Source of the DNA: Dictyostelium discoideum
Taxonomy: Eukaryota
Direction: 5' to 3'
DNA: 64,000 bases
NCBI GenBank assembly: GCA_000004695.1
Contig: CM000155.2
Span: 640,001 to 704,000, forward strand
In this document: positions 28,198-61,502 of the stretch, one piece after another
Layout: each line of letters begins with the position of its first letter
Position numbering within the stretch: position 1 is the first letter of the stretch
Made by a program: the position numbers and the translations under genes
Notes under the pieces: generated by a model
Told to the model about the DNA's origin: nothing
What the model saw: only the letters and a program-made list of their open reading frames with translations
Database searches by the model: none

Positions 28198-31100
28198 GTA
28201 ATAATAGTTTTAACAATAATAAAAAAAATGAAGTTTCAATAGGAATAAGTGAAAATACAAATGAAAATAATAATAAAAATAATAATAATAATAATAACAA
28301 TAATGATGATTATAATGATGGTGCAGATGAAAGAGTTAAAACTGAAGAAGAAATTAAAAAAGAAGCTGAAAATGAATTAAATCAATCAGTACCATTTTTA
28401 TCATTATTTAGATTTGCCGATAATACAGACAAGGTTTTAATGTTTCTCGGTACAATTGCTGCAGTAATAAATGGTGCAGCAATGCCAACAGTCTCTTTGG
28501 TATTTGGTTTAGTAGTTGATGCATTTAAACCAACTCAATTTAATGATGACCCAAATTATGATATTTATGATACTGTAAGAAGTATAAGTTTTTATCTTTT
28601 AATGTTGGGTGGTGGTGTTTTTGTTTTATCATATTTAGAAACGACATTATGGTAATTATTTCTTTTTTTTTAAAAAAAAAAAAAAAAAAAACCAAAAATT
28701 AACTAATCACTTTTTTCCAATTTTTTTTTTCCAATTTTTTATTTTTATTATTTTTAAAATAAAAGGATGATTGCTGGTGAAAGACAAACAAGTAGAATTA
28801 GAAGGGAGTATTTAGAGTCAACATTAAGACAAGAAATTGGTTGGTTTGATACAAATAAAGCAAATGAATTATCATCAAGAATTAATTCGTAAGTTTATTT
28901 TATTTTTTTATTTTTTTTTATAAATTAATATTTTTTAAAAATATTAATTTTTATAAAATTAAAAAATAAATTAGTGATACAGTTTTATTTGAAGAAGCAA
29001 TTGGTGAAAAAGTTGGTAGATTTATTCATTTTTTTTCCACATTTGTTGCTGGTTTTGTAATTGGATTTACTAAAGGTTGGCAATTAACATTGGTAATTAC
29101 ATCAGTATCACCATTATTAGCAATTGGTGGATTTTTTACTGCAAAAATGATGACACAAATGACAAAACTTGGACAAGAAGCATATTCAAGAGCTGGTGGT
29201 GTTGCAGAGGAGAATATTGGGTCCATTAGAACGGTTGCAACATTTTCAGGTGAAAAATTAGCAATTGATAAGTATTCAAATAATTTAAAGGATGCAAGAA
29301 CCGTTGGATATAAGAGATCATTTTTCAATGGATTGGGTTTGGGTTTCGTTCAATTTGTAATATTGGGTACTTATGCATTGGCATTTTGGTATGGTTCAAC
29401 TTTGATTTCAAATAAAGTTACCAATTCAGTATCTGATAGACCATGGACTGGTGGTGATGTTGTATCGGTATTTTTTGCAGTTATTATTGGTGCAACATCC
29501 ATTGGTCAGGCATCACCATGTTTGGCACTATTTGCACAGGGTAGAGGTGCAGCTTATAAAATTTTCCAAGTTATTGATCGTCAATCAAAAGCAAACCCAT
29601 TCTCAACTCGTGGTATTAAACCAGAGACTTTAAGTGGTGAGATTGAATTTAAAGATGTTGGATTCCATTATCCATCAAGACCTGATGTACCAATTTTCAA
29701 TGGATTTAATCTAAAAATTAAACCAGGTCAAACTGTTGGTTTAGTTGGTGATAGTGGTGGTGGTAAATCAACTATAATATCATTGTTGGAACGTTTCTAT
29801 GATCCATGTCAAGGGGAGATCTTATTGGATGGAGAAGATATTAGAAAATTCAATGTCAGAGGGTTACGTCAAAAAATTGGTTTAGTCAATCAAGAGCCTG
29901 TATTATTCGCCACAACCATTAGTGAAAATATTCGTTATGGTAAAGAAGGTGCCACTCAAGATGAAATTGAAGAAGCAGCTAAATTAGCAAATGCCCATAG
30001 TTTTATATCACAATTACCACAGGGTTATAATACTTTGGTAGGTGAGAAAGGTGTCCAAATGTCTGGTGGTCAAAGACAACGTATAGCAATTGCTCGTGCC
30101 GTTATTAAAAATCCAAATATATTACTCTTGGATGAATCAACATCTGCATTGGATGCAGAGTCTACAAAATTAGTACAAGAGGCATTAGATGTTTTAATGA
30201 AAGGTCGTACTACAATTGTAATTGCACATAATTTATCAACCATTAGAAATGCTGATGTTATTATTTACATTAAAAAAGGTGTTGCCGTTGAAAGGGGTAC
30301 TCATGATGAATTGATGGCTAAACAAGGTTTGTACTTTGATTTAGTTGAAAAACAATCTCATCAACAAATGTATAATCTACTTGAAAATGGTACAAGATCA
30401 AGAAGATCAAGTACATTCTCAGCAGAGGTCAATCCATTATTGGATAGTTTCCATGTTTCAAAGAGATCTCTAAGAAAGAATGAATCAGAGTCAAATAAAA
30501 AAGATAAAGAAGATTCAAATAATAAAAAGAAAAAGAAATCAAATAAGAAAAAAGTTGAAGAAGTACCAATGTCACGTGTTGTTAAATATAATAGACCAGA
30601 GTTGGGATTATGGTGTTTTGGTTTCTTGTCAGCTGTTGGAACCGGTGCAGTTTATCCAGGATTTGCAATGGTTTTCACAGAGATGTTAACAATCTTTCAA
30701 AATCCTGATCCAAATTATCTAACGGATCATGCAAATTTCGTGGCATTAATGTTTGTGGCATTAGCAGTTGGTGCAGGTATTAGTAACTTTTTCCAAGGTT
30801 TCCTTTTCTCTGTTATTGGTGAAAAATTAACTTATCGTCTAAGACGTGATTGTTTCGCTGCAATTATGAGACAAGATGTCGGTTGGTTCGATTTACCAGA
30901 AAATTCAACAGGTAAATTAACATCACATCTTGCCACTGATGCAGCATTGGTCCAAGGTATGACTAGTCAAAGATTGGGTATTGTTTTACAAAATATTCTA
31001 ACAATGGTTGGTGGATTGGTTATTGCATTCTATTCGGGTTGGCAATTAACTTTGGTAATTATTGCATGTTTCCCATTGGTTGTTATCACTTCAAAGGTAC

Positions 31101-32401
31101 AAATGCAAATTTTAGCAGGCTTTTCATCAAAAGATGGTTGTGGTCCAGCTGGTCAAGTTGCATCCGAAGCAATATCGGGTATTAGAACAGTTGCATCATT
31201 CACAACCGAGAAACAAGTCGTAGAACTCTATAAGAAACAACAAAAAGGTCCATCATCTGAAGGTATTAAAAAAGCACATATTAGTGGTTTTGCATTTGGT
31301 TTCACTCAATTAATATTGTTTTGTGTTTATTGTTTATCATTTTGGTATGGTGGTAAATTGGTTGGATCTGGTGTTTTTGGTGCAACCGATAAAGAGATCT
31401 CTGATAATTGTACACCACAAACTATACCTTACCTTTGGAAAGATTATGATACTTGTGAACGTGCACAAAATACAATCTATGGTTTCAATTCAATGACTAG
31501 AGTTTTCTTTGCAATTGTTATGTCTGCAATTGGTGTTGGTCAAGCGTCATCATTTGCTCCAGATTTAGCAAAAGCCAAAGCAGCAGCTGTATCAGTTTTT
31601 AAATTATTAGATACTCCATCAAAGATTGACCCAACCACTGAAGATGGTGATAGAATTGATATTGTCGGTGGTGATATTGAATTCAAGAATTTACATTTCT
31701 CTTATCCAACCAGACCTGATAATAGCGTTTTTAGAGGCTTCACTTTAACTTTACAATCTGGTACTACCACTGCATTGGTTGGTGATAGTGGTGGTGGTAA
31801 ATCAACATGTCTATCATTATTACAAAGATTCTATAATCCAGTCGTGGGTGAAATCTTCATCGATGGTCATAATATAAAGAATCTAAATGTTCGTCATCTT
31901 AGACATCTCTTTGGTTTAGTTGGTCAAGAACCAACTCTATTCAGTGGTACAATTGCCGACAATATTCGTTATGGTAAGCATGATGCAACTCAAGAGGAGA
32001 TTGAAGAGGCTTCAAAATTATCAAATTCTCATTCATTCATCATTGATTTACCAAATGGTTATAACACAGAGTTGGGTGAGAAATACACTCAATTATCAGG
32101 TGGTCAAAAACAACGTATAGCAATTGCTCGTGCAATCATTCGTAATCCAAAGATTTTATTATTGGATGAGTCAACCTCTGCATTGGATGCTGATTCAACA
32201 AAATTAGTTCAAGAAGCACTAGAAAATGTTATGAAAGGTCGTACTACTATAGTCATCGCTCATAATTTACTAACAATTCAAAATGCAGATTGCATTGCCT
32301 ATGTTCGTGCTGGTCAAATCATTGAAAGAGGTACTCATGATGAGTTATTAGAAGCTGAAGGTCCTTATTCTCAATTATGGTATAATCAACAACAAAAATA
32401 A
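27903..32401 (+). CDS. ABC transporter B family (MDR/P-glycoprotein-like), full TMD-NBD-TMD-NBD; exons 27903..28651, 28766..28888 and 28975..32401
   Basis: Two NBDs with Walker A GDSGGGKST, signature LSGGQ(R/K)QRIAIARA and Walker B ILLLDESTSALD. TM blocks resemble ABCB1. Introns are TATG|GTAATT...AAAAG (the split W codon is restored) and AATTC|GTAAGT...AATTAG. The N-terminal 160 aa is an acidic, poly-N extension. Confidence 0.9.
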
Positions 32402-32552
32402 TAATAAAAATAAAAAAAAAATAAAAAAAAAAATAAACCAAAATAAATAAATAAAAAATATAAAGTGTTTTTAAAATCTGTATTATTAATTCATTCACAT
32501 AAATATATTTATTGGTGTATTTACAATTATTTTATTATTATTATTATTTGAT

Positions 32553-33128
32553 TTATTGATTTGCAATAGGATTTGCATGAATTGTAACAGATTTTAAAAT
32601 GATTTCATTTAAAGGTAAATCTTTATCATCAACGGGTACTTTTTCCATTAAATCTAAAACTTCAATACCTGCTATTATCTTTCCAAATACTGTATAAACT
32701 TTATTTAAACTTCTATGTTTTCCATATGTTATAAAAAATTGTGACCCATTTGTATCTGGTCCACTATTTGCCATTGATAAAATTCCACGTGTATTATGCT
32801 ATAATTATTATTATTATAATAAAATTTTAATATTTAATTTATAAATATATATAAATGTTGAACTAAAAAAATAAATTATTATAATTACTTTTAAATGTGA
32901 CGGAAATTCATCCTTAAATTGCTTTTTCCAAATACTTTCACCACCTCTACCTGTATTTGTTGGATCACCACCCTGTATCATAAATCCTTTAATGTTTCTA
33001 TGAAATATTGTGTTGTTATAATAGTTTGATGCACATAATGCTAAAAAATTTTCAGATGCTAAAGGAACTGAATCACAAAAAATTTCAACTTTAATATCTC
33101 CTAAACTTGTATGTAAAGTGACTGACAT
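32553..33128 (-). CDS. ppil3: Peptidyl-prolyl cis-trans isomerase-like 3 (cyclophilin PPIL3); exons 33128..32889 and 32798..32553
   Basis: Exon 1 [63 protein letters not shown] matches PPIL3 almost residue for residue. An AAA|GTAATT donor and 90 bp intron end in an ATAG acceptor. Exon 2 reads [27 protein letters not shown]... Confidence 0.85.
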
Positions 33129-33729
33129 TCTAAATATTTATTAATTTGTTTTTTTTTTTTTTTTTTTCTTTATTTCAACAAATGAAAAAACAATAGTGAA
33201 AAAAAAAAAATCAAAGAAAATTTAAAAATGAAATTTTTATTTTTTTTTTTATTTTTTTTTATTTTATTTTATTTTATTTCGCATAAAAGTAATAATTTAA
33301 AAGATTGTGATTGAAAATGACTGGGGGATAAGGGATTATTATAATTTGGTATTTAATTTATAAAAACAAAATATGTTGATCCTATGTTGTCTAATATTTT
33401 TTATTTTTTAGATCTATTTTTATTATTTTTTATTATTTTTTATTATTTTTTATTTTTTATTTTTTTTTTTAAATTTTATCACCATCTGTTTTTTTTTTAA
33501 CCCAAAAACTTTATTTTTAGAATTCAATTATTCGCCATTCATTTTTTGTAATTGAAGGGAATAAATTTTATTAAAAAAAATTGATTTTAATTTATTTATT
33601 TTTTTTTTTTTTTAAAAAAAGACAAATAGGTCAACAGAATATAAAATTTAAATTAAACAGTATTAATAAAAAAAAAAAAAAGTTGGAATAACAATTATAA
33701 TTTTATATTTATTTTATTTTTAATATTTT

Positions 33730-33769
<40 letters not shown>

Positions 33770-33795
33770 AAATTCGAATGATAAGAATATTTTAT

Positions 33796-35024
33796 TCAAT
33801 CAGCAGTTTTCTTTTCCTTGTCCGAAGTAGATAAATTCTTTAAAAGATCAAGCAATTCATCTGCACCATCACTACCATCTCCACCATTATCATCACTTTC
33901 ATCACTTTCATAATAGTTATCTGAATTGATTTCTGGTTTATATTTATCATCCCCAATATAAAATCTTCTATGTTTTCCAGAATCATAAAAAAACACATCG
34001 TCTTTATATGCTGATTTAATCTTTTCTTTATATACAAGAATTAGAGAATGATCATTATCATTCAGATCCATTTCACCATCAGTACAAACCATTCTTAATT
34101 TTTTTGCAATTATTTTGAAATCCTCCAAGATTTCATGTGATTTTTTGAAAACAAATTCCATTGGACTCTCACCATTCTCAATTTTCATTATTCCTGCCTT
34201 CTGTTGATGTTTATATCCCGTATATCTTTGATTGTTAAAAAAAATTCTTTTTTCCAAAGTGTATCCGGCAATAAATGGACTTTCGATAATATTATTCCTT
34301 GTTGGAATATGGTATGATACGTTGGATCATCTTTTTTAGTCTGAGAGATTATCAAATGTACCTTGTCACCCAATCTTTGAACTTTAGAACATGATAAACA
34401 GAAATCACTAATCAAATTAGGAAGACTTGGATCCATAAATGAACTTCTATCATGAGGCATTGACCAATATATTTTTGAATATCTTTCATTTGATTCATGT
34501 ATTTTTGTTGCATCTAATCCAAAAATAACAGTACATTCAGAAATTATTAAAAATTCAATATTTTTAATTGTCAACAAACAGTTATCACATTTTTTAACAT
34601 TATCTTCACAACATCCGTAGGTTGTAACTCCAGTTTTTATAAGTACATCCTTATGAACTTTAAATTTATTGTAAACTGTTTGGGAAATATATAAATCTGA
34701 AGCGGTTATTTTTAAAAATTTCCCATCATTTGTGTGATGATTTTGGTTATGTTTTTCCAATAAAGAAGTTGAAAATGAGAAATTTCCTTCGCCTACAAAT
34801 AAAATTTTATGATGTCTCTCTGCTTTACATTTCGAAAGTGGGGCTCTAGTTTGGAGGAAAAAAAAATAAAAAAAAAAAAAATAAAAATAATTTAAAATGA
34901 TAAATTCAAATTTAAAATAATTTGGAAATTAAATATTTTATTCTAATAATTACTTGGTTTCAGATTTAGACACTCTTTTAGAAATTTCAGATATTTTTTT
35001 TTTATTTGGTTGAGGTGTATACAT
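33796..35024 (-). pseudogene. DUF2431/BMT5-like putative methyltransferase, array copy 1, frameshifted; exon-1-like 35024..34954 and body 34845..33796
   Basis: Same two-exon layout as the intact copy: MYTPQPNKKKISEISKRVSKSETK then GTAATT intron, then APLSKCKAERHHKILFVGEGNFSFS.... The reading frame breaks near 34190-34260 because of a 7 bp deletion relative to copy 2 (CAAGG-A-ATAATATTATCG versus CAAGGCTGTGTATATAATATTATCG). This splits the body into ORFs 34188..34760 and 33796..34257. Confidence 0.6.
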
Positions 35025-35535
35025 TTTCAAATATATATATTTTATTTGATAGGTTGTTTTTTTAAAAAAAAAAAAAAAATTTTAGTTCATTGTTTTTTTT
35101 ATCTTATTTTTTTAAATTTTTTTTTTTTAATTTTTTTTTTTTAATTTTTTTAATTTATTTTATTATTTAAAATTGATTTATCAGGTCAATTTCATATAAA
35201 TTTCATAAAATTCTCAATAAAATTGGTTTGATTTTAAAATTAAAAAAAAAAAATTAAAAAAAAAAAAATTTTTTTAAAAATTTGATAAAAAAAACTTTAA
35301 TCAATAATTTTTATTTTTTTATTTTTTTTTATTTAAAATTGATTTGGGTGGTCTTTCGTATAAAAATAAACTTTAAAAAAAGAATGATCCAAATGTTTTT
35401 GAAATGATTAATTTAAAATAATTTTGAAATTAAATATTACTTGGTATCAGATTTAGACTCTCTTTTAAAAATTTCAATTTTTTTTTTAATTTGGTTGGGG
35501 TATATCTTAAAATATTTTATTTGATAGGTTGTTTG

Positions 35536-35584
<49 letters not shown>

Positions 35585-35931
35585 TTTTCAAAGTTTTTTT
35601 TTATATTATTTTTTAAATTTTTTTTTTTTTTTTATAATTAAAAATTGGTTTGTGTGCCAATTTCATATAATTCTCATAAAATTCTTAATAAAACTAATTT
35701 TTTTAAAACTCTCAATAAAATGGGTTTGTTTAAAATTAAAAAAAAAAAAAATTTTAAAAATAAGATAAAAAAAACTTATATTCATTTAAAATTGATTTGT
35801 TCTGTTAATTATAAAAATCTCATATGAAATTCTAAATAATAAAATAAATATATAAAAAAAAAAGAGTGATCCAGAATTCTACATTAGGAGCATTTGATGA
35901 TACAACTTTCTTTACCAAGGAAGGTTCGCCT

Positions 35932-36032
35932 GAGCCACTTTAGAAATTTGAGATCTGAAAAATTGAGACCACTTTGGGAATTTGAGATTTAAAAAATTGA
36001 GACCACTTTAGAAATTTGAGAATTAAAAAATT
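35932..36032 (+). repeat. 33-34 bp tandem repeat x3 (GAGACCACTTTAGAAATTTGAGATTTAAAAAATT)
   Basis: Three near-identical direct copies seen in sequence, inside the ectopic copy of the 41611..44151 gene tail. Confidence 0.8.
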
Positions 36033-36340
36033 TGAGATTTGAGTATCTAAAAGAAATCAAATTTGAAATTAAATTTACTCTTAATCATATTAAAAAAAAT
36101 TATTAACCAATGATTTTAATAAAATACCAAATGAATTCTCCAAACCAAAAGGGAAAAAAAAAAAAAAAAGTTGGAAATACAATTATAATTTCATTTTAAT
36201 TTTTTTTTTTATTTTTAAATTGAAACTTTTGGTTATGTTTTTTCAAAAATGATGTTGAAAATGAGAAATTTCCTTCACCTACAAATAATATTTTATGATG
36301 TCTCCCTGCTTTAAATTTTCGTAGTGGAGCTCTAATTTAG

Positions 36341-36394
<54 letters not shown>

Positions 36395-36970
36395 TAAAAT
36401 GATAAATTTAAAATAATTTGGAAATTAAATATTTAATTAAATAATTACTTGGTATCAGATTTAGATACTCTTTTTAGAAATTTTAAATATTTTTTTTTTT
36501 ATTTGGTTGAGGTGTATACATTTAAAATATAAATTTTATTTGATAGGTTGGTCAAAAAAAAAAAAAAAAAAAAAAAATTTTTTTTTTTATTTTTTAATCT
36601 TATTTATAGTGATGCCAAAAAGTTTTATTTTGGCTTAAGTTTTTAAAATTGATTTTTATAAATCTCATAAAATTCTCAATAAAATGGTGATTTAAATTTT
36701 TTTTAAATTAAATTTTTTTTTTTATTTTTTTTTTTTAATTTAAATTTTTTTTTTTTTTTTAATATTAATTTTTTTATTTTATTTTTTTTTTTTATTATAA
36801 AGCTCTAAAAATGAAGTTGGTATTTTAATTGATTTAAAAAATTTGAGATTTGAGGCAGTGTATAAAAGAAATCAAGTTTGAAATTAAATTAAAAAATTTA
36901 CTCTTAATCATATTGAAAAAAATTATTAACCAATGATTTTAATAAAATACCCAATGAATTCTCCTATCAG

Positions 36971-37004
<34 letters not shown>

Positions 37005-37352
37005 GAAAATACAATTCCAATTTCATTTTAATTTTTTTTTTTTTTTTATTATTAAATTGAAATGATAAGAATATTTTATTCATACATTAGTTTTCAATTG
37101 TTTTATTTTAAAATTGGTAAATTCTTAAAAAAAAAAAAAAAATAAATTAAAAAATAAAAATAAATTAAAAAATAAATTAAAAATAAAATTTTTTTTTTTT
37201 TTAATTTAAAAAAATAAGATAAAAAAAACTTTGATCAATTTTTTTTTTTTTTTATATTCATTCATTTAAAATTGATTTGTGTGGTAATTCATATAAATCT
37301 CATATAAAATAATTAATATTATATAAATTTAATATATTAAAAAAAAAAAAAA

Positions 37353-37943
37353 ATGAATGATTCAGATGTTTTTAAAATTTTACTAATTGGTGATTCAGCA
37401 GTTGGAAAAACATCGTTATTATTAAGATTTACAGATCCCAATAATTTTCAAGAGACTTCAGTAAATATGACTAGTGTTGATTATAAAAATAAAAATATAA
37501 CTATTGATGGAAGAACATTTAATTTACAAATTTGGGATACAGCAGGACAAGAGAGATTCAGAACAATTACATCATCTTTTTATAGAGGAGCACATGGTGT
37601 TTTAGTATGTTATGATGTCACTGATCAACTTACATATAATAACGTTGGGTTATGGATGCAAGAAATTCAAAGATATGGAGTACTTGGAGTTAGTAGAGTT
37701 TTAGTTGGAAACAAATGTGATCTCGAAGATAGAAAATTGGTTAACGCTTCAATTGCCCAAGAATACGCTGATATTCTCGGTATTCCATTCATTGAAACTT
37801 CTGCTACAACTGGTGTTAATGTAGAAGAGGCTTTCATGGCAATGGCAGATGAAATTTATAGAAATCATATAGGTGGCTCAAAACCTTCTGTTGTAAAACC
37901 AGTATGTGGAAGTCCTCCCCGCACGAAAAAAAATATTTGCTAA
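37353..37943 (+). CDS. Rab-family small GTPase, single exon
   Basis: GDSAVGKT (G1), WDTAGQE (G3), GNKCD (G4), ETSAT (G5). Rab-family motifs RFRTIT and YRGAHG are present. It lies inside the tandem array, 35 bp downstream of one copy of the ATTGATTTG... motif. Confidence 0.85.
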
Positions 37944-38056
37944 TTTTAAAGAAGAGTGGATAGAAGAAGGAGGGTTTTTGCCAATTATTTTAAAGTTTCA
38001 TATAATTGCAACATCAAAAAATAAATAAAAAAATATAAAATGTAAAATTTAAATGG

Positions 38057-38097
<41 letters not shown>

Positions 38098-38304
38098 AAA
38101 CTTTTTTTAGTTTTTTTAATCAATTCCTTATTTCTATTTAGTTTATTAATAGTTCTTTTTTTTTATTTTCATAATTATCTTATTTTTTTATTTTTTTTTA
38201 TTTAAAATATAGAACATATTTATATTTCAATAAATATGTTATATATGTTTCTTATTTTTATTAAATTGAAAAGATAAGAATATTTGATCCAAACAAAATT
38301 TTTC

Positions 38305-39554
38305 TTATAATTGTCTATTTTTGTCTGAAGTGGATAAATTCTTAAAATTATTGAAAAATGATTCATCTTCACTATCATCATGATTATCACCATGATCATC
38401 ATGATCATCATAATAGTCATCTGAGCCAAACTCTGGTTCATAATCATCATCTCCAATATAATAACGTCTATAGCCTTCTTTTTCATAATACCTTAATTTC
38501 TTATATGATGATTGAATCTTGGTTTCATATTTATTACTTATAACTTTATCATTTCCTTGAAGATCTATTTCCCCAACAGTTCTTAATTTTAAAGCAACAT
38601 TTTTGTATTTTTCTAAAACTTTTCCAGATTTTTTGAAAACAAATTCCATTCGATGTTTTCCATTCTCAACTTGGTCTGTTCCTTCTGTCTGTTGATGTTT
38701 ATATCCCTTATATCTTTGATCGTCAAAATAATATCTTTTTTCCAAAGTGTATCCAGCAATAAATGGGCTTTCGATAATATTATATACACAGCCTTGTTGG
38801 AATTCGGTATGATAGGTTTTTTTTCGATGTATCAAATTTTGAGAGATTATCAAATGTACCTTGTCACCCAATTTTTGTACTTGAGAACATGATAAACAGA
38901 AATCACTTATCAAATTAGGGAGACTTGGTGTTGAATATTTAGTTCTATCATGAGGCATTGACCAATATATTTTTGAATATTTTTCGGTTGATTCATGTAT
39001 TTTTTTTGCATCTAATCCAAAAATTACTTGGCAATCGAATTTTATTAAATAATTAATATTTTCAATTGTTAACAAACAGTTTTCACATTTTTTATCAGCT
39101 TTTGGTCCACAAAAATCTTCAGGACATTGGTATTTTTCAACTCCAGTTTCTTTAAGTACATATCCACAATCTTCGAATACTTTAAAAACAGTTTCACATA
39201 CAAATAAATCTGAAGCGGTTATTTTTAAAAGATTATTATCATTTGTGTGAAATTTTTGGTTATGTTTTTTCAATAAAGATGTTGAAAATGAGAAATTTCC
39301 TTCACCTACAAATAAAATTTTATGATGTCTCTCTTCTTTACATTTTGATAGTGGAGCTCTAATTTAGAAATAAAAAAAAAAAAAAAATAAAAAAAAAAAT
39401 AAAAAAAAAAAAAAAAAAAAAATAAATTTTTAATAATTAATTTTTAATAATTTGGAAATTAAATGTTTTAATTAAATAATTACTTTGTATCAGATTTAGA
39501 CACTCTATTAGAAATTTCAGATATTTTTTTTTTATTTGGTTGAGGTGTTAACAT
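38305..39554 (-). CDS. DUF2431/BMT5-like putative methyltransferase, intact array copy; exons 39554..39484 and 39358..38305
   Basis: Exon 1 MLTPQPNKKKISEISNRVSKSDTK ends in an ACAAA|GTAATT donor. A 125 bp intron ends in an AAATTAG acceptor. Exon 2 begins (K)APLSKCKEERHHKILFVGEGNFSFSTSLL, the hallmark N-terminus of the BMT5/DUF2431 family, and continues through KIYWSMPHDR and GDKVHLIISQ into an acidic YYDDHDDHGD tail. The ORF is uninterrupted. Confidence 0.65.
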
Positions 39555-40075
39555 TTTCAAATATATAAATATTTTATATGATAGGTTGATGAAAAAAAAA
39601 AATTTTTTTTAAAATAAGATAAAAAAACTTAAGGGTTCTAAAATAAAAAAAAAAAGCCAATAATTTTTTTTTTTTAATTTAATTTTATTCCAAATTGATT
39701 TGTCTGGCTAATTTCATCTAAATCTCATTTTGTTTTTATTAAAATTTCATTAAATTTTAAATAAAAAAAAAAAAATTAAAAAAAATAAGATCTAACCTTC
39801 GCGTTTTTTTTGAGGTTGCTTTTTTAAAATTTTGAATTTTTTTTTTTTTTTTTTCTTTTAAAATTTATCATATCATTACCATTTAAAACTTCAAATAATG
39901 ATTTGCACTTTGGGACCCACTATAATTTGTTCAAATAATTGTTTTGTTTCGAAAAAAAAAAAAATAAAAAAAAAAAAGGTTGGAAATACAATTATAATTT
40001 TATTTTATTTTAATTTTAATTTTTTTTAATTTTTTTTGCTTTTTTTATTAAATTGAAATGATATGAATCTTTGAT

Positions 40076-41051
40076 TCAGAGAGCAGTTTTCTTATAATTG
40101 TCTACTATTGTCTGAAGTGGATAAACTCTTAAAACTATTGAGAGATGATTCATATTCACTATATCAGAGTTGAATTGTGGTTGATAATCATCATCTCCAA
40201 TATAATAACGTCTAATGCCCTCTATATCAAAATACAATAAGTTATATGATGACTGAATCATGATTTTATATTCATTAATTCTATCTTCGTCATCTCCTAG
40301 AAGATCTATTATAAAAAATCTTCTAAATTTTGATGCAACATTTTTGTAATTTTCTAAAATTATACCAGATTTTTTGAAAACAAATTCCATTAGACCTACA
40401 CTATCAACTGTCATTGTTCCTTGTGTATTTTGATGTTTATATCCCTCATATCTATTATTCTTAAAATGAATTCTTTTTTCCAAAGTGTACCCAGCCTTCA
40501 ATAATATTGTAAACAATGCCTTGTTGGGATTGGGTATGAATGGCTGAATAATCATCTTTATAAACTTGAGCGATTATAAAATGTACCTTGTCACCCAATT
40601 TTTGTGCTTCAGAACATGATAAACAGAGATCACCAATCAAATGAGGAAGAGTTCCTTTTTTAAATGAACTATTAGGCATTGACCAATATTTTTGAATATT
40701 TTTCATTTGATTCATGTATTTTTCTTGCATCTAATCCAAAAATAACTTTGCATTGAGAATTTATTAAAAATTTAATATTTTCAATTGTCAACAAACAGTT
40801 TTCACTTTTATTATCATCTTTTGTTCCACAATATTCCTTAATACATTTGAAGATTTTAACTCCAGTTTCTTTAAGTACATCTCCACAATCTTTGAATTCA
40901 TTAAAAACAGTTTCACACACATAAATCTGAAGCGGTTATTTTTAAAAATTGATTATCATTTGTATAAAGATGTTGAAAATGAGAAATTTCCTTCACCAAC
41001 AAATAATATTTTATGATGTCTCTGCTTTACATTTTGGAATTTGATTTTTAA

Positions 41052-41087
<36 letters not shown>

Positions 41088-41216
41088 ATTTAAAATGGTT
41101 AATCTAAAATAATTTGGAAATTAAATATATTAATTAAATAACTACTTTGTATCAGATTTATAGACTGTTTTAGAAATTTCTGTTATAATTTCTATATCTG
41201 GTTGAGGTGTATTCAT
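40076..41216 (-). pseudogene. DUF2431/BMT5-like array copy 3, multiply frameshifted and internally deleted
   Basis: Homologous to copy 2 but split over ORFs 40672..40920, 40461..40730 and 40076..40555. The region after FSFSTSL is deleted. The exon-1-like segment at 41216..41146 reads MNTPQPDIEIITEISKTVYKSDTK. Confidence 0.6.
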
Positions 41217-41610
41217 TTTCAAATATATATTTTATTTGATTGGAATTTATTAAATTATAAAGTAAAAAATTTAAAAAAAAAAACTTTTAACAATAGTTAT
41301 TTTTTTTTTTTTTTAAAATTTAATTTTTTTAAAATAAATTTATTTTAATAATTCTCAGATTTGTGAGAAAAAAAAATAAAATAAAAAAATAAAAATAAAT
41401 TCTAAAAATAATTATCAAATGTTTTATTTTTATTTTTTTATTTTTATTTTTTTTTTCTCATAATCTGAGAAAAAAGATTTTTTCCCCACCCGATTTATCA
41501 ATTAAATCAAAATATTTTAATAATTGATTAATGGGGGAAAAAAAAAATAAAAAAAAAAAAAAAATTTTATTTATTTAATTTTTTTAAACTTTTTTTATTT
41601 TTTTTTTTTT

Positions 41611-44151
41611 TTAGAATCTGTTTTTAACACCACTTAAAAAATAATCATAAATTATAGAATCATTATTATCCTTAAAATATTGATTACAAAGCTCTACAAA
41701 TAAAGTTGGTCTTTTAATTGATTCAAAAAATTTGAGATTTGTGGCAGTGTCTAAAGAAATCAAATTTGAATATGATACTGAAATTAACTCTTCAGCATAT
41801 TTAAATAATAAATTATTAACCAATGATTTTAATAAATCACCAAATGAATTCTTGAAACTACCACATGAACAATTCCTTCCAAAAATAAATTCAAATGAGA
41901 ATATATTTGGTAATAAATAATTTCTAATTTGATAAGAAATTGAATTATTATTATTATTATTATTAAGAGTGACAGGAGGTGTTTGAATATTTGAATATTG
42001 TTTATTACAATCATAAAATCTACTATAAGGGATAGTAGTTTCGTGTGGAAATGATAGTATATATTTTGTAAACTTTGGAGATCTAATATGAAGAAAATAA
42101 AATGTTTCATATAATCCAGGTTCACTGAACCAACTTGGGTAACCAGTATTTCCATTATTAATATATTGGTGTACTGATTCCATCATTTCAATTGTAAAAC
42201 CTTTATGTTGAATTAATTTTCTATAAAGATGTTGAATCATTATGTTAATACCATTACTAAAAGGCACATATTCTTTAAATCTATCATAAAATGATTTTAT
42301 TAGAGTGATCATTGCAGTAATATCGGTAGCAACTTTACCATCACCATTACCATTATTACTATCATCATCACCATAATGATATATTATACGATTAGCTCCA
42401 TATCCATGTTTGAAAATGATTGCTTTAGTATTAATTGAAGGATTATAAGATTCAACTAAATCATCGAATATATTTGAATCAAATTTAACCTTTTTACAAC
42501 AATTATTTAATAAAAATTGTAATTGAATTAAATCCAATTTAAAAATTGAATTTACAATAATTTCTTGAATCTCTTTAATTTTGAAATTCTCTTCAATTTT
42601 AAATTCTAAAAATGCTGCTTCTGTTGCTGATGATGATGATGATTGTGATGATTTATAATATCGAACTAATTGATTATAAAATCTTTTTAAATTTTCATTT
42701 GTAAAACTTTTAAATTTTGATTGATTTAAATAATTTAATAATTTAATAATTTGTTTAATTGGAGTATTTGGTAAAATGAAATCATCATCATCATTATCAT
42801 TATCATTATCATTAGATTGAAAGTCTAAAACTTTAATATTTAATGAATCTATAATTTTCAAATTATTTAAATCACATTGTTGGATTGATTTCTTGAATAG
42901 GTATCTAAATATATACTCTTTTGATTGTTGCTCTACTTGTATTGAATTCTCTTTGCCTTTTAAATAAAATGATTGAATTGATTTAAAAGAATTTAATTGA
43001 CCTGTTACTTCTTTACTATCATTATTATTATTATTATTATTATTACTATTATTATTATTAAAATTATATGCATATTGAATTATTTGAAAATCAGTAAAAA
43101 CAATAGAATGATCATTTAATAATACTGATAAAATAACTTTATTTTCAAATGAAATTAACCAATTTATAATTAATTTATCAGATATTATTAATGAATAAGA
43201 TTGTTGTTTTTCTAAATTTTGATTATTATTATTATTTTTAATATATTTTAAAATTGGAAACATATGAAATTTCTTTAAATTCATTTTCTTTTTATATTCA
43301 TTATAAAAATTAATTATAAATGGTATTGAAATTGATGGTTTACTTAATTTAATATATCTTAAAAATGAAATTAAATAAGATTCATCAGAACCATCATTTT
43401 TATCTTTAAATTCATCTTTATTATCTTTGAATGCATTTAAATAATGATCACCATAATAAAATTCATCAAGTTCATCTTTACATTGATGAAATTCATCAAT
43501 TGATTCATTATATTTTAAAATGTAATCTTTATATAATTCTATTTGTTTTGTTTCAATAATTATAAATTTTTGTAATTTTTTTAATTTATATTTTTCAATA
43601 TCACAACTACTACCACTACTACCACTTTTACTACCACTACTACTACCACTACTACCACTACTATTGCTACTGATTTTTTTAATTTTATTATTAATTTTAT
43701 CTAATTTTGAATCAAGTGGTTTAATTGGTTTATTTAAAACATGGATTAAATTTGTTCTATGTGTAAATAATAATTCATCAAATGATTGATTAATTGTTAA
43801 ATTAAATGGTTTAGTGACGAAAAGACGATTTGTAAAGATTGATAAATCATAGATTTTATTTAATAAATTATAATTTTCAAAATCATATATTTTTCCAAAT
43901 GAAAAACTATTTTTTTCATCATTACATTTTGAATCGTATAAACCACTATTAAATAAGAAAAATTCTAATAATTGTTCTCTACTTTCTTCTCTATTCTTTA
44001 AAATTAATGATATTAATGTTTTATTTCCAATAAATGGTTCAACTTTTTCAATTTTACCATATTGTTGAATTTGAATTTTTATAAATTCTTTTATAAATTC
44101 GATACTTGAATATTTTAAAACATATTGTAAATTTGATGGTAAAACTTTCAT
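41611..44151 (-). CDS. Hypothetical large Asn-rich protein, 846 aa
   Basis: Long uninterrupted ORF with coding-type composition. No domain recognised. Its last ~190 bp of coding sequence has diverged non-coding copies at 35880-36135 and 36788-36975. In frame upstream of the ATG, the (AAT)n repeat reads as poly-N back to a stop at 44371, with no ATG. Confidence 0.55.
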   Translation of the reverse strand: MKVLPSNLQYVLKYSSIEFIKEFIKIQIQQYGKIEKVEPFIGNKTLISLILKNREESREQLLEFFLFNSGLYDSKCNDEKNSFSFGKIYDFENYNLLNKIYDLSIFTNRLFVTKPFNLTINQSFDELLFTHRTNLIHVLNKPIKPLDSKLDKINNKIKKISSNSSGSSGSSSGSKSGSSGSSCDIEKYKLKKLQKFIIIETKQIELYKDYILKYNESIDEFHQCKDELDEFYYGDHYLNAFKDNKDEFKDKNDGSDESYLISFLRYIKLSKPSISIPFIINFYNEYKKKMNLKKFHMFPILKYIKNNNNNQNLEKQQSYSLIISDKLIINWLISFENKVILSVLLNDHSIVFTDFQIIQYAYNFNNNNSNNNNNNNNDSKEVTGQLNSFKSIQSFYLKGKENSIQVEQQSKEYIFRYLFKKSIQQCDLNNLKIIDSLNIKVLDFQSNDNDNDNDDDDFILPNTPIKQIIKLLNYLNQSKFKSFTNENLKRFYNQLVRYYKSSQSSSSSATEAAFLEFKIEENFKIKEIQEIIVNSIFKLDLIQLQFLLNNCCKKVKFDSNIFDDLVESYNPSINTKAIIFKHGYGANRIIYHYGDDDSNNGNGDGKVATDITAMITLIKSFYDRFKEYVPFSNGINIMIQHLYRKLIQHKGFTIEMMESVHQYINNGNTGYPSWFSEPGLYETFYFLHIRSPKFTKYILSFPHETTIPYSRFYDCNKQYSNIQTPPVTLNNNNNNNSISYQIRNYLLPNIFSFEFIFGRNCSCGSFKNSFGDLLKSLVNNLLFKYAEELISVSYSNLISLDTATNLKFFESIKRPTLFVELCNQYFKDNNDSIIYDYFLSGVKNRF

Positions 44152-44249: not shown

Positions 44250-44737
<488 letters not shown>

Positions 44738-48476: not shown

Positions 48477-51230
48477 GTAATAATAATAATAATATTAACC
48501 ATATATATATATATTTTTTTTATTTATAAAAATTTAATAATAATAAAAATAATAATAATATTAACCTTATAAGATAATAATGAAGGTGGTGATAATTCGA
48601 CTTATGTTGCAATTAATTTTAATCATCAAGGTAACAATTATAGATTTTCAAGAAAAATTATTGGTAATGGATCACAATATTTTTTTGAACAAACTCAAGT
48701 TTCAGCAGAACAATATCAAAAACATTTAAAAGATATTGGTATTGATATTGGTACAAAGAATTTCTTTGTATTTCAAGGTGATGTTGAGAGTATAGCTACA
48801 CAAAATCCAAAGCAAATTTCAGCATTTATTGATGATATCTCTGGTAGTAGAGCATTGAAATTTGAGTATGATAGATTATTGGGTGAAAAGTCTAAATGTG
48901 AAGATGACGTTTTCGCATCATACGCTAAAAGAAAAACGATAGCATTCGAGAAGGAGCAATACAAGGAGCAGTGGACCGAGGTGAAAGAGTACCAATCCAT
49001 GCAGGACCGAGTGGACTCTTTGAAAACTGATCAACAATTAGCTAAACTTTATCAAACCACCAAAGAGATGAGAAAGGAGCAAAAACTATTAGACGAAAGT
49101 AAACAACAAATCCAATCTATCCAATCGGATGAAATGAAGCCATTGGAACAACAATACACACAGACTAGTAAGAACCAGGCGTCATTGCATAAAGAGGTGG
49201 TGCAATTGGAGGATGATATCTCGAGGTTGATAAAGGGCAAGAAGAAGAAAGGCTCCGATCAGTATTCTGCCGAAGAGGAAATTAAGTATATTTCAGAGAA
49301 AATCAAGAAAACCAAATTAATCCTATCAAAAGCTGAAAACAGTCGTAGTAAACAAATACAAGAGATTGATCAACTTCGTAATGAATTAAATGAGTTTACT
49401 GAACAATTGGAGAATCTAGATGACGAAAAGGAGGTGGCAGAAACTGGGCTATCAATAAAGATGGACCATCAACAAATTGAAGAATACAATCAATTGAAAT
49501 TGCAATCAGGTAAGGAAACCTCTGGTTTAAAGATTAAATATGACCAACTATCGAGAGAGCACAAAATTGAACAGGACCAACACCAACAACTCACCTATAG
49601 ATTGGAGGAGTTTGAAACTATGAAAAAGAAATTCCAAGAATCTAAAGAGAAATTTCAAAATCAAAAAGATATTGAACAATCGAATTTCCAAGATTTAGAA
49701 CAGAAATTAAAAGAGTCAGAGAAAGAACTCGTACAATGTACCACTAGATTCAATGAGACACAACAACGTCAACAAAATTTAAATAATGATTTAGAGCGTA
49801 TTCAATATAGTCTTTCCGATTTGAAATCATTGAAATCTGAAAGTCAACGTGATAGACAATTCAATCAAACCGTTGAAACTTTGAAAAGTATTTTCCCAGG
49901 TGTTAAAGGTAAACTAATGGATTTATGCGAACCTTCACAACGTAAATATGCAACCGCATTGACTCTAACAATGGGCAAACTAATGGATGCCATCATCGTT
50001 GACACTGAAGAGACTCTAATTGGTTGTGTACGTTATTTAAAGGAGCAATTACTTGGTGTTGCAACATTTATAAGTTTAGATCGTTTACAAATGGTTAAAC
50101 CAATTAATCAACAGTTACGTCAAATTAGTGGTGGTGGTGGTGGTAGTACAGCTAAATTATTATTCGATTGTTTAAAGATTCAAAAAGGTATAGAAGATGC
50201 TGTATTGTATGCATTGGGTAATACAGTGGTTTGTGAAAGTTTAGCAGAGGCAAAGTTATTGGCATTTGGTGGTAAAGATCGTGTAAAGGTTATAACTATA
50301 CAAGGTATTAGAATCACAAAATCAGGTTTAATGAGTGGTGGTGGTTTATCATCAATTAAATCCAAATCATCACAATGGGATACTAAACGTGTTGAAGAAT
50401 TAAAGAAACAAAGAGACACCATATTGGCAGAACTATCCGATGTAATCCAATTGAATGAGATTTTCAATCAACGCCAACAATTGACAAGTCAAGTACATCA
50501 ATTGAAATCGGATTATTCATTATCAAAGAGTAAAATTGAGTTACTCAATGATAGATTGAAAAAGAATCAACAAGAATTGGAAACCAATGAAAAGGTAATC
50601 AATGAAACAATCATTCCCGAGTTATCGGAATTGAATGAAACATTGGCAAAACGTAAAACTCAATTAGATCAACTACAAAGTGAAATCAATTCAATAGAGG
50701 AGAGATATTTCAGTGGATTCTCAAAGAAATTTGGTGTTGACAATATCAGAGAGTATGAAGATAACAGGTTGGCTAAAATTCAAGAAAACATTCAAAAGAG
50801 ATTATCATTAACTGAATCGATCTCTGTGATTCAATCACGTTTAGACTATGAACAGGGTAGAGAGATTGATAATGAAATTAAACAACTCTCTGAAGAATTG
50901 AATGCAAATGAAAAGATATTAGATCAAGAATTGGAACATAAGAAAGAGAATGATGAAAAAGAGAAACAATTCAAAGAGAATCTATCCGATCTACAAAAAC
51001 AACATACTGAAAAGAAATCACAATTAGATAAAATGAATATAACCATTAAAGATTTGAAAAAACAATTATCAACTTTTAATAATCAAATCACTGATATTGA
51101 AAAATTAAGTAATCGTCATGATTTTAATATTACAAAACTTCGTGGTGTTTATCATCAAATTTTAATTGAAACTAGAAATGAAGATATTCGTTTACCAATT
51201 TTACAATTTAAAGGTAAAGAAATTGATCAA

Positions 51231-51292
<62 letters not shown>

Positions 51293-52478
51293 TAAATCTG
51301 AAGGTGAAACTGAAGATAATAATAAAAAACAAAAAAATAAAGATAGTGAAGCTGAAGTTGATGAAAGTGCTGTAAGTGAAGGTGAAAATGTTAAAAAACC
51401 AAAGAAACCAACAATTAAAAAGAAAAAATCATCAATAAAAAGAAAAAGAGAAACAAATAAAGGTGATCAAGAAGATAATCAAGAAGAAGATGAAGAAGAT
51501 GAAGATGATATATTTAATGAATCAGATGTTGAAGAAAATGAAAAACCAAATATTTTACAAGATATAATTAAAGATATAACACAAGCAATGGTACAAGATG
51601 ATATTTTAGATATTTATGAAGATGAAGCATCAATTAAATTCAATTATTCGTCATTGAAAAAACGTGTATTTGTTGATCAAAAAACTTATGAAGAATATCT
51701 TAGAAAGTTAACAATCGATATTGAAACCATTGGTAAAGAGATGAAAAGAGTTATGCCAAATTATAAAGCCTATGAGCATTTGGTTGATGTTAGTGATAAA
51801 TTGAAAAAAGTTAGAAAAGAGTTAAACCAAGCTAGAGACAATGCAAAAACAAAGATAGACTCATTCAATCGTGTTAGAGACCAAAGAAAACAATTGTTTT
51901 TAAGAGCGTTCAAGAGGATTGCAAAGAATCTCACTTCAATCTATTCAGAGTTGACAAGAGAGTTGGAACCACCTTATCATAGGGGTTCGGCTCATTTGGC
52001 TTTGGAAGACACTGAAAATCCTTTCAACTCTGGTGTAAGGTTCACTGTTATCCCACCAAATAAAAGATTCCAAGAGATGGATCAATTGAGTGGTGGTGAG
52101 AAATCAGTGGCTGCTTTGGCTTTCCTTTTCTCAACTCATGGCTTGAAATCAACTCCATTTATGATTCTCGATGAAATAGATGCCGCCTTCGATAGTGTAA
52201 ACGTTTTGAAATTGGTGCGTTATGTTAGACATAAAGCAAGTAAAGATCTTCAATTCTTGGTAATCTCTTTGAAAGAACAATTCTTTGTCCACTCTGATCT
52301 TTTAGTTGGTGTTTGTAGAGAACCAGATTCACAATCAAAATCTTTCCATTTACTTTTAGAAGAATTCCCTGAATCTGATGAAGCAAAGAAAGCTTTAATC
52401 TCAAAAGGTGACGATGAAACTGAAACTGATGGTAAAACTTCTGCAACTTCTGGTAGTAGTGAAAGTGAAAATGACTAA
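48164..52478 (+). CDS. smc1: Structural maintenance of chromosomes protein 1 (cohesin SMC1); exons 48164..48380 and 48574..52478
   Basis: N-terminus LKIQNFKSYKG...VIGPNGRGKSNIMDAIIFVLG. Donor AAAA|GTAATT and a 193 bp intron containing (AAT)n are followed by an ATAAG acceptor. Exon 2 reads NNNEGGDNSTYVAINF...NFFVFQGDVESIATQNPK. The hinge reads GKLMDLCEPSQRKYATALTLTMGKLMDAIIVDTEETLIGCVRYLKEQ, and the C-terminus reads LSGGEKSVAALAFLFS...FMILDEIDAAFD, which is SMC1-type. Confidence 0.9.
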
Positions 52479-56660: not shown

Positions 56661-57439
56661 TTTCTTTTTTTCTTTTTTTTTTTTTTTTTTTTTTTTATTT
56701 ATTTTGATACATAAATAATATACAAATAAATAGGGAATTTTACTTTTATATAACAAAAAAAAAAAAATAATAATAAAATTGGAAAAAAAAAAAAAAAAAA
56801 TGAAAAATATAAAAAAAAAAAAATGGAAATTAAAAAAATAAAAAAATAAAAAAATAAAAAATATTAAAAAAAAAAAAAAAAATCTGGAAGGGGGGATGCG
56901 TGAATTATATGTTCATCTTTTAAAGGATTTTGGGGATTATTTTAATTATTAAAATTAAACATTTTTTTTTTTTTTTTTTTTTTATAATTCAAATACAAAA
57001 TAAAATTATTTTTAATATTTCCAACTTAAAAAAAAGAAGAAAAAGATTTTATTTTTTTTTTTTTTTTTTTCAAAGCTTTATAAAAAATTTTTTCAAATAA
57101 AAAAAAAATTAATAATCTAGATTTTTTTTTTTTTTTTTAACATTGATGACGTTAATAGATTTAATTCTAGGGGTTTATTATCAAAAACTTTTATATAAAA
57201 TGAAATTTCTGAAGCTTCCTCAAAGTATTTTTTTTTTTCATATTTTCGAACTAAAAAAAAAAAACCTAAATATTTAGGCCATTTATAATTAATTTATTTT
57301 CCTTTTTTTTTTTTAGATTTTTTTATCTTTTTTTTTTTTTTTTTTGAATTAAAAATTATAATCAGTCCAAATTATAATAATAAAAATAATAGTAATAATA
57401 ATAACATTAATAATAAATTAATATTTTCAAAAATATAAA

Positions 57440-58900: not shown

Positions 58901-58922
58901 ATTAAATATAAATTAAATAAAA

Positions 58923-58955
<33 letters not shown>

Positions 58956-59834
58956 ATCATATAAATATATATTTATTTATTTTTTAATTCAATCATTTTT
59001 TTCAAGAATCTTAAAAGTAAAAAAGATAATTATACAATCTTAATATTATAAAAAAAATAATGAAACTTCATTAAAAATAAATAATTAAACGAAATTTCAT
59101 TAAAAAGAAAATAAAAAAACGGAATTTCATTAAATAAATAATCAAACAAATAAATAAGTTTAAAAAACACTTAATTCCTTTATTTTATATTATTTTATTG
59201 AAGATTTTCAATATCACAGAATCAACAACCCTCACCAAATACAAACACAATAACCAGTAGAACAACTCAAACATCACTACAGGTATAAACACAAGAACAA
59301 CAAACATACCCAACAACACAATCAAAATAAAAAAAATAAAAAAAATAAAAAAAAAAAAAATTTTTGGAATAAAAAAAAATTAAAAAAAAAATGAAAAAAA
59401 AAAAAAAAAAAAAAAAAAAACCGAGAATTTTTTTTTTTCTTAAATTAACATATGTTTTATTTAATAGAAATTTTATCTTCCAAAAACAAATATTAAAATC
59501 TCTAATTCACTACTTTAAAAATTTCCAAGGGATTATACAAACCCATTTTCATTACCAAAAAAAAATAAAAAAATGAAAATAAAAAAAAACTTGTGATTTA
59601 AAGAATTTTTTCTATTTTTATTTATTTTCATTTTTTCGAGTAGAAATGTGAAATTACGGCTCTGGTGGGTTTGTCATCTTTTTTTTTTTTACTTTTAATT
59701 TTTATTTTCACCTTATTTTTTTTCTTTTTTTTTTTTTCTTATTTTTTTTTCTTAATTTTTTTTCAGCTAAAAATTATAATCAGTCCAATTTATAATAATA
59801 AATTAAATTATTTAATATTATCAAAAAATATATA

Positions 59835-61287: not shown

Positions 61288-61502
61288 ATAAACTATAAAT
61301 TAAAAAAAAATTAAATTATTTAAAAAAAAAAAAAAAAAAAACTTTGTTGATAATTTTTAAAAAAAGGTGTTTTGGTTTGATAAAAAAAAAAATTAATTTT
61401 TCACAAATTTATATATTATTTCTTTATTAAAATCATGTAATACTATTTTTTCAATAATCTTAAAAAAAAAATAAAAGATCATTTTGCAATCTTGAAAAGA
61501 AA

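Follow-up and report, generated by a model that had tools for sequence, protein, structure and literature searches.

Probable duplication-derived relics of the 3' coding part of DDB_G0291744 within a young BMT5-like/RabG1 array of Dictyostelium discoideum

Introduction

Duplication-derived (non-processed) pseudogene fragments, also called gene relics, occur at the edges of tandem segmental duplications, for example in yeast genomes. Two short stretches beside the gene DDB_G0291744 of Dictyostelium discoideum AX4, here called copy A and copy B, are like such relics in several respects. A truncated coding piece appears to have been copied at the DNA level beside a duplicated neighbour, small indels, frameshifts and stops have accumulated in it, some lineages have lost it, and an intact parent lies nearby. 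They differ from the described kind in that the fragments are very short (~125–175 nt) and lack both the terminus of the gene and its stop codon, and in that the primary copy lies 4.8 kb from the parent, beyond an inserted RabG1 gene. Copy A is joined to a minisatellite that is like other products of slippage expansion in having 3.1 head-to-tail 34-bp copies with 87% identity at the edge of neutral DNA. It differs from them in its chimeric unit, made of 13 nt of gene relic and 21 nt from elsewhere, and in having the same copy number in both of the close strains compared.

Within the genus, expanding Dictyostelium families such as those of the tgr loci include many truncated homologs and pseudogenes, vary in copy number between lineages and are driven by duplication; new long-read assemblies of wild isolates are described in the same paper (PMC12745789). 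The locus studied here shares the genus with the tgr loci, and the assemblies compared below are probably of the same new long-read set. However, it is not among the loci described there, and its fragment comes from a bystander single-copy gene that flanks an array, not from an expanding family. A literature search for the DDB_G identifiers returned no paper mentioning these genes. The window referred to below is the whole stretch of AX4 DNA that was analysed (64 kb), and all AX4 coordinates are positions within it.

Results

Parent gene and native core

DDB_G0291744 (Q54E89; 41611–44151, minus strand), the parent gene, was assigned by exact-sequence look-up to D. discoideum AX4 chromosome 6 (3.6 Mb). 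Its 846-aa model is a hypothetical protein, for which Pfam gave no family above threshold. A 1-nt difference in the length of a T-run at ~44366–44372 suggests that this AX4 model may be cut short by an error in the reference. The part of the CDS that corresponds to the ectopic copies, the native core, lies at 41683–41858 on the minus strand and encodes residues ~765–823 (GSFKNSFGDLLKSLVNNLLFKYAEELISVSYSNLISLDTATNLKFFESIKRPTLFVELCN), as indicated by translation, tblastn and nhmmer (E 4.6e-47). The native segment translates to ...KYAEELISVSYSNLISLDTATNLKFFESIKRPTLFVELC, also given as ...FGDLLKSLVNNLLFKYAEELISVSYSNLISLDTATNLKFFESIKRPTLFVELC.... The original prediction had described it as the C-terminal coding end of the gene; the encoded peptide agrees with that description, but 24 further codons follow, and the segment is therefore not the extreme C-terminus.

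A core profile run on the 64-kb window matched only three sites, namely the native core, copy A and copy B. When the core was sought in the window and in seven 20-kb loci, every match fell either at the native site or within the array described below. Orthologous native cores were present in the four related assemblies L001–L004 and in L008 (D. dimigraforme).

A word-indexed search with the full-length DDB_G0291744 protein returned the query alone, as low-complexity words swamped the candidates. An exhaustive HMMER search recovered two distant Dictyostelium paralogs, P0005 and P0006. These paralogs (830–1311 aa) align across residues 755–818 with 28% identity, and the aligned region is in the interior of the proteins. 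The D. dimigraforme orthologue is located 880 bp from a cyclophilin gene, through which the locus was reached, and its last 199 residues align end to end with 50% identity. The syntenic D. dimigraforme locus contains no BMT5-like unit and no RabG1. Because the paralogs and this array-free orthologue conserve the region as protein, we take the coding state of the core to be ancestral and the direction of copying to be from gene to fragment.

Two ectopic copies of the core

Copy B (36791–36966, minus strand) is a decayed, non-coding relic of the core detected by blastn, Smith-Waterman and tblastn. Copy A (36016–36141, minus strand; 36015–36141 by nhmmer), detected by blastn and Smith-Waterman, is a shorter relic that is left-truncated by ~45 nt relative to B and contains four in-frame stops. 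In stringent blastn searches, B matched native ~41680–41858 with 84% identity (E 6e-47) and A matched native 41725–41858 with 81% identity (E 2e-28), so that the nucleotide homology to part of the parent CDS is significant for both copies (E 1e-28 to 1e-47). The identity between A and B was 82% with gaps included (blastn) and ~94% (94.4%) when only mismatches were counted.

The Smith-Waterman scores against the native core were 76 for A and 116 for B. A null set of 2854 random 256-nt windows of the AT-rich window gave a mean of 18.4 and a maximum of 31, and dinucleotide shuffles placed the two copies at z = 18.4 (A) and 29.5 (B), with a null maximum overall of 31–35. Both copies thus score far above AT-rich, low-complexity background, and the condition named as refuting the original prediction, an identity no better than that background, does not hold.

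The reading frame of copy B is broken in tblastn alignments, which place ENSLGILLKSLVNN-FFQY in frame −2 and LYTASNLKFFKSIKIPTSFLELYNKKKK in frame −1 with a stop at the end, and copy A is interrupted by its four stops. Each copy spans fewer than 60 of the 846 parent codons, and the parent protein is not encodable by either. The original prediction of ectopic, non-coding copies of the 3' coding part that have lost the frame was thus borne out in both of its elements, the homology and the frame-broken state.

The extent of copy A had been overstated. In a three-way alignment, B follows native 41680–41858, and A can be aligned only from ~36016 to 36141. Base-by-base alignment with native 41690–41880 had been proposed for 35880–36135 and 36788–36975; it is found over 36791–36966 (B) and 36016–36141 (A), but not over 35880–36015. 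Because 35862–35935 shows no significant similarity to the gene (p = 0.35), and because the adjoining 34-bp repeat unit shares only a 13-mer with it, the length of copy A is put at ~125 nt and not ~255 nt.

Minisatellite and orphan stretch

The left edge of copy A is straddled by a minisatellite at 35931–36037 with a 34-bp unit (TGAGACCACTTTAGAAATTTGAGATTTAAAAAAT) in 3.1 copies (TRF score 163, 87% matches), which corresponds to the 34-bp triplication already noticed in one of the copies. The unit and the native gene have only the 13-mer AAATTTGAGATTT in common (p ~0.02). The minisatellite is identical in a second D. discoideum strain (L001), with no change in copy number between these two close strains.

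To the left of the minisatellite is an orphan stretch (35862–35930) that is richer in G+C, has no detectable homolog and had wrongly been counted as part of copy A. Smith-Waterman comparisons of the orphan with the gene, the array and the D. cf. discoideum locus gave p = 0.17–0.99 against shuffles. Two candidate sources, the 5' part of RabG1 and a 180-bp orphan found in L003 and L004, were rejected, as neither gave a match.

Structure of the BMT5-like/RabG1 array

Self-comparison of the window revealed a degenerate array of minus-strand units composed of a 3' "tail" motif, a BMT5-like gene and an upstream region, with a gene-end relic and then poly(A) in two of the units. Unit a (33669–36146) comprises BMT5 copy 1, an internally doubled upstream region, the orphan, the minisatellite and copy A. 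In unit b (36147–36975), a truncated tail is fused directly to a BMT5 5' coding stub with its upstream region (36221–36605), and copy B follows. In unit c (36975–37350), a tail is combined with a 55-nt 3' stub, and the distal-upstream-like sequence that follows abuts the RabG1 start codon. RabG1 (Q54E92; 37353–37943, plus strand), identified by Pfam and exact-sequence look-up, is intronless and lies inside the array, between units c and d. Unit d (38248–39977) carries the intact BMT5 copy 2 without a relic, and unit e (39978–41610), with BMT5 copy 3, abuts the parent gene.

Pfam PF10354 (BMT5-like methyltransferase) domains were found in the minus-strand ORFs 34188–34760 and 38305–39273. BMT5-like copy 1, the alpha copy (33796–34850, minus strand), contains one frame change, with tblastn matches in frames −3 then −2 and a PF10354 match. 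Copy 2 (38305–39273, minus strand) has an intact ORF (PF10354, E 9e-10), and its unit gave no core match. Copy 3 (40076–40984, minus strand) has at least four frame changes, its five tblastn HSPs being in frames −1/−2/−3/−1/−3, and is likely a pseudogene. Two of the three AX4 BMT5 copies are thus frameshifted.

Units a and b meet at a junction that can be read in the sequence. A poly(A) run and the first ~62 nt of the BMT5 3'-flank tail (GTTGGAAATACAATT...TTAAATTGAAA; tail profile E 5.7e-13) occupy 36147–36218 and end at the tandem-duplication junction (...aaattgaaa / c / ttttggttatg...). Beyond it, 36221–36605 (minus strand) was identified by self-match as a BMT5-like 5' coding stub (...HHKILFVGEGNFSFS...) with proximal upstream sequence and no gene body; it is 88% identical to 39248–39602 and 83% identical to 34741–35109. 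The poly(A), tail and ~55-nt 3' coding stub of unit c (36975–37130, minus strand) are 74% identical to 39952–40134 (tail profile E 8e-17). The distal-upstream-like sequence that abuts the RabG1 ATG extends over 37157–37350, and its part at 37157–37297 is 77% identical to 35236–35364.

By self-match and a neighbour-joining (NJ) tree, 34739–36218 is the left copy of a tandem duplication of the AX4 lineage. It holds copy A and has since grown by an internal ~0.5-kb doubling (34858–35297 ~ 35362–35777), the orphan and the minisatellite. The right copy (36219–37062, ~0.84 kb) holds copy B and is colinear with L003 8720–9690.

A MAFFT alignment had hinted that the tail motif (GTTGGAAATACAATT...ATTAAATTGAAATGATAAGAA), which both copies share, might continue the homology to the gene at 41908–41990. 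This was rejected, as the tail profile misses the gene. Because the profile instead matches the 3' flanking sequence of all BMT5 units, those of D. cf. discoideum among them, the tail is assigned to the BMT5 flank. Searches for a third relic gave nothing significant at the right end of the copy 2 unit (39786–39951; p ~0.5 against the gene) or to the left of BMT5 copy 1 (33560–33668).

The window has a G+C content of 16–35%, in a genome of 78% A+T, and contains many weak self-matches of up to ~60 bits. Elsewhere in it, Pfam identified an ABC transporter (29090–32401) and an SMC protein (48855–52478). No Rfam match at the gathering threshold and no tRNA was found in the whole window, and the region 35500–37400 gave no Rfam match at E ≤ 1.

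Comparison of related lineages

RabG1 variants served to retrieve the related loci, among which L002 represents D. cf. discoideum. The RabG1-based search for the syntenic locus of the citrinum clade led to a RabG2-like paralog locus. Conserved genes gave the lineage tree ((AX4, L001), (L003, L004)), L002.

The L001 locus is 99.1% identical to and colinear with that of AX4, and it carries both relics as in AX4 except for one SNP in B and a change in poly(A) length. L003 has one ectopic core (9419–9571), which is colinear with copy B, followed by the tail, RabG1 and BMT5 copy 2; this relic is eroded by 5–7-nt deletions, and its left flank reads A26-G-T8. In L004, the sister of L003, no ectopic core was found, and the poly(A) leads straight into the tail. 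L002 has the native core only, and where AX4 has 35050–37100 it carries 3 kb of sequence that is unrelated. Both L003 and L004 contain a single copy of the segment that is tandem-duplicated in AX4. AX4 has a run rich in T to the left of the core, where L003 and L004 have a 180-bp orphan with poly(A). The number of BMT5 units to the right of RabG1 is one in D. cf. discoideum, two in AX4, two in L003 and three in L004. The array, which is absent from D. dimigraforme, is thus best described as unstable, very young and variable in copy number.

In a seven-sequence alignment, A, B and the L003 copy grouped together. All three have a common 3-bp deletion and 1-bp insertion relative to the gene, and at five sites all three carry the same non-native state. 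The identities were 94.4% between A and B, 87.4% between B and the L003 copy, and 90.9% between A and the L003 copy, compared with 80–89% between ectopic and native sequences and 90.5% between the native cores of AX4 and L003. A four-sequence alignment contained eight sites at which native AX4 agrees with native D. cf. discoideum against A and B, and zero conflicting quartet sites. Copies A and B are accordingly grouped as sisters, A being placed as a secondary, AX4-lineage copy within the B lineage. The shared indels and sites, the identities and the distribution of the relics together imply one primary copy made before the AX4–L003/L004 split, followed by the A/B doubling in the AX4 lineage and by loss in L004.

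In the NJ tree, the stub and upstream region of unit b grouped with the single alpha-unit upstream region of L003 and of L004. The alpha and beta BMT5 bodies are 75–78% identical. Between AX4 and L003, the divergence of the B orthologues was 12.6%, against 9.5% for the coding core (~120 sites, a small sample). Together with the absence of relics from L004 and L002 and the erosion in L003, this divergence, which is drawn from ~120 sites, indicates that the relics evolve without constraint.

Discussion

Proposed origin of the relics

We consider it probable, at roughly three chances in four, that A and B are non-functional remnants (pseudogene fragments) that derive from the 3' coding part of DDB_G0291744 and arose by partial duplication, tandem doubling in the AX4 lineage and decay. 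The comparisons show that the region of residues ~765–823 was copied at the DNA level into the neighbouring BMT5-like array, in a single event that preceded the separation of the AX4 lineage from that of L003 and L004. The relic has the upstream region of the alpha BMT5 unit on one side and the tail (3' flank) of the following unit on the other. A ~0.84-kb segment consisting of the BMT5 5' stub, the upstream region, the relic, poly(A) and the first 62 nt of the tail was later duplicated in tandem in the AX4 lineage and gave A and B; the truncated tail fused to the 5' stub at ~36218/36221 is the junction expected of such an event. The left copy afterwards lost ~45 nt of relic, gained the 34-bp minisatellite and the orphan insert, and doubled part of its upstream region. 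Both relics gathered frameshifts, stops and flanking homopolymer runs; the relic is missing in L004, and the L003 copy has been worn by small deletions. Lack of function is inferred from this decay and from the lineage-specific loss.

The primary event itself may have been a tandem duplication of a BMT5 unit whose right breakpoint, near 41860, fell within the CDS. A poly(A) stretch links the right edge of the relic, at ~native 41858–41868, to a BMT5 tail and 3' stub, and a breakpoint inside the CDS would create just this junction of relic and tail. The stop-proximal 72 nt and the spacer would later have decayed or been deleted. Against this origin, no copy in AX4 or L003 retains the terminal 72 nt of the CDS, the stop codon or a recognisable downstream spacer, and neither the copy 2 unit nor the copy 3 unit next to the gene has a relic. 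The identity of the relic to the gene (83–89%) also exceeds that between the alpha and beta BMT5 bodies (75–78%), and for this reason a common origin of the relic and the BMT5 units would require fast BMT5 decay or later gene conversion.

The original prediction held that the duplicated unit spanned the gene boundary. The succession of core, poly(A) and tail, as expected from a tandem duplication ending in the CDS, is the one hint in that direction, and no copy keeps the last 72 nt, the stop or the spacer. The colinearity of the upstream region to the left of B is not evidence of co-duplication with the gene end, because this region groups with the alpha unit's own upstream region in L003 and L004. 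The proposal that the relics provide an internal molecular clock holds for relative order only, and they are no independent clock for the BMT5 copies: A and B are not independent, ~120–137 sites are comparable, the units are mosaics whose segments show conflicting affinities, and units have been gained and lost. The order given by the relics is primary copy, AX4/L003 split, A/B doubling. In the comparison of divergences with the BMT5-like copies, which had also been proposed, the relic–gene identity of 83–89% against the alpha–beta identity of 75–78% makes the relic look younger than the alpha/beta split.

Alternative explanations

That apparent youth, together with the upstream sequence beside copy B, which belongs to the alpha unit's own lineage, would also suit a different primary event. 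An isolated gene piece of ~190–250 bp may have been captured as break-repair filler or by template switching in the spacer between the alpha unit and RabG1, with only the A/B step being tandem. The absence of the stop codon, the terminal 72 nt and the spacer beside the core in AX4 and L003 fits this explanation, as does the lineage-dependent sequence to the left of the core (T-rich run in AX4; 180-bp orphan and poly(A) in L003/L004). However, the right edge of the relic passes through poly(A) into a BMT5 tail and 3' stub, exactly as at a tandem-duplication junction, and loss of flanks is expected where AT-rich spacer quickly decays to homopolymers, as it does here. We regard capture as unlikely, though deserving of some weight. 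The missing terminal 72 nt of the CDS, and likewise the missing 3' UTR, would be required in a retrocopy and speak against the copies being processed (retro)pseudogenes, made from DDB_G0291744 mRNA and truncated at the 5' end as LINE-mediated retroposition would leave them. Homopolymer runs do flank both copies, and the neighbouring RabG1 looks like a retrogene, so that retroposition may have occurred at this locus; but such runs are ubiquitous in the window, and the mRNA poly(A) of a minus-strand gene would appear neither on the plus strand nor beside the 5' truncation, which is where the A-runs are found. In flanks of homopolymer or low-complexity sequence, short direct repeats would also say little about target-site duplication. 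The left flank in L003 (A26-G-T8) is not a poly(T) tail either. Retroposition is disfavoured as a very improbable origin.

Retention for a function, for example as a BMT5-like regulatory element or as an antisense or small-RNA template against DDB_G0291744, would account for a core that is still 83–89% identical to the gene while nearby spacer is unalignable. The copies are also identical or nearly so in the second D. discoideum strain (one SNP in B), but that strain is 99.1% identical to AX4 overall, which makes its identity uninformative on constraint. Moreover, the relic is absent in L004 and D. cf. discoideum and eroded in L003 by 5–7-nt deletions, the B orthologues have diverged more than the coding core (12.6% against 9.5%) and by an amount in the neutral range, Rfam gave no match, and the sole intact BMT5 copy (copy 2) has no relic; a retained function is accordingly held to be quite improbable. 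More specifically, and very doubtfully, the relics, possibly with the chimeric 34-bp repeat, might be transcribed from BMT5-unit promoters into antisense or small RNAs that modulate DDB_G0291744; if this were true, the locus would be a young, lineage-specific regulatory circuit made from duplication debris. In a fast-evolving gene without a Pfam domain, the core could conceivably have been an ancestral non-coding part of the repeat unit into one copy of which the gene frame was extended. This reversed direction is refuted, and left with hardly any probability, by the paralogs, whose 830–1311 aa align through the same residues in their interior, and by D. dimigraforme, which lacks the array and yet has an orthologue encoding the C-terminal 199 residues at 50% identity; the ectopic copies also share derived, frame-breaking indels. 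Chance resemblance, for which the low G+C of the window and its many weak self-matches to ~60 bits might be cited, is refuted by the Smith-Waterman comparison with random windows and shuffles (76 and 116 against a null maximum of 31–35, z = 18–30; blastn E 1e-28 to 1e-47). The segment is not a simple repeat, and its peptide relics are recognisable, so that the probability of chance is practically nil.

Implications

As judged from the comparisons above, the favoured reading, relics left by partial duplication and decay, places A and B among duplication-derived pseudogene fragments, here with a small slippage-generated minisatellite; both are of a well-known kind and unannotated at this locus. 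As debris of a fast-evolving hypothetical gene, the relics themselves are of little importance. For annotation, they would best be masked or flagged as pseudogene fragments, lest they be taken for exons. As markers, together with the four related assemblies, they have a modest value in that they date two steps in the growth of a very young BMT5-like/RabG1 array. They also show how fast neutral DNA erodes to homopolymers in a genome of 78% A+T: within one species complex, the flanks of a coding fragment have gone, a minisatellite has arisen beside it, and one lineage has deleted it.

Copy number and decay of the BMT5-like/RabG1 array

The interval holding the BMT5-like methyltransferase units and RabG1 (33110-41610) spans approximately 8.5 kb in AX4, and its copy number varies among lineages. 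To the right of RabG1, one BMT5 unit was found in D. cf. discoideum, two each in AX4 and the related lineage L003, and three in L004, another related lineage. The whole interval was missing from the syntenic locus of D. dimigraforme, where 880 bp separates DDB_G0291744 from the cyclophilin gene. Relative to the intact copy 2, BMT5-like copy 1 (33796-34850, minus strand) carries one frame change and copy 3 (40076-40984, minus strand) at least four. Copy 3, at least, is probably a pseudogene, even though gene-calling programs model it as a gene.

The spacer between RabG1 and the alpha BMT5 unit, which is the unit of copy 1, holds three distinct orphan inserts across three lineages: a 69-nt insert in AX4 (35862-35930), an insert of approximately 180 nt in L003 (L003 9175-9375) that is also present in L004, and, in D. 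cf. discoideum, one of approximately 3 kb that contains small ORFs (L002 6775-9763). No homolog was detected for any of the three.

Other duplications were observed in the window. A further tandem duplication, of approximately 2.1 kb, lies outside the array (56997-59072 versus 59371-61483, 78% identity). The two halves of an ABC transporter gene (29468-30387 and 31502-32416) share 67% DNA identity, reflecting the internal duplication that full-size ABC transporters usually have.

Gene model of DDB_G0291744

The counterpart of the hypothetical protein gene DDB_G0291744 (41611..44151, minus strand) in a second D. discoideum strain, L001, is a single 1041-aa ORF (L001 14241-17366), and that in D. 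cf. discoideum encodes 1048 aa. In the T-run at 44366-44372, AX4 has one T more than L001, and this extra T divides the ORF into the annotated 846-aa DDB_G0291744 and an upstream 124-aa ORF (44363..44737). The AX4 model is probably truncated at the N-terminus, through either a reference error or a strain-specific frameshift.

Origin of RabG1

RabG1 (37353..37943, plus strand) has no introns. The most closely related paralog locus is RabG2-like, and its neighbours are Med20 and DUF218 (L005-L007, 10001-11526). In D. cf. discoideum and D. citrinum this locus contains at least two introns, which are exactly absent from RabG1. A run of 44 A residues lies approximately 115 nt past the RabG1 stop codon (region 37353-38100), and RabG1 was not found at the D. 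dimigraforme syntenic site. Given its intronless structure, the exact absence of the paralog introns, the A-run, and the lack of RabG1 at the D. dimigraforme site, RabG1 looks like a young retrogene that inserted within the BMT5-like array.
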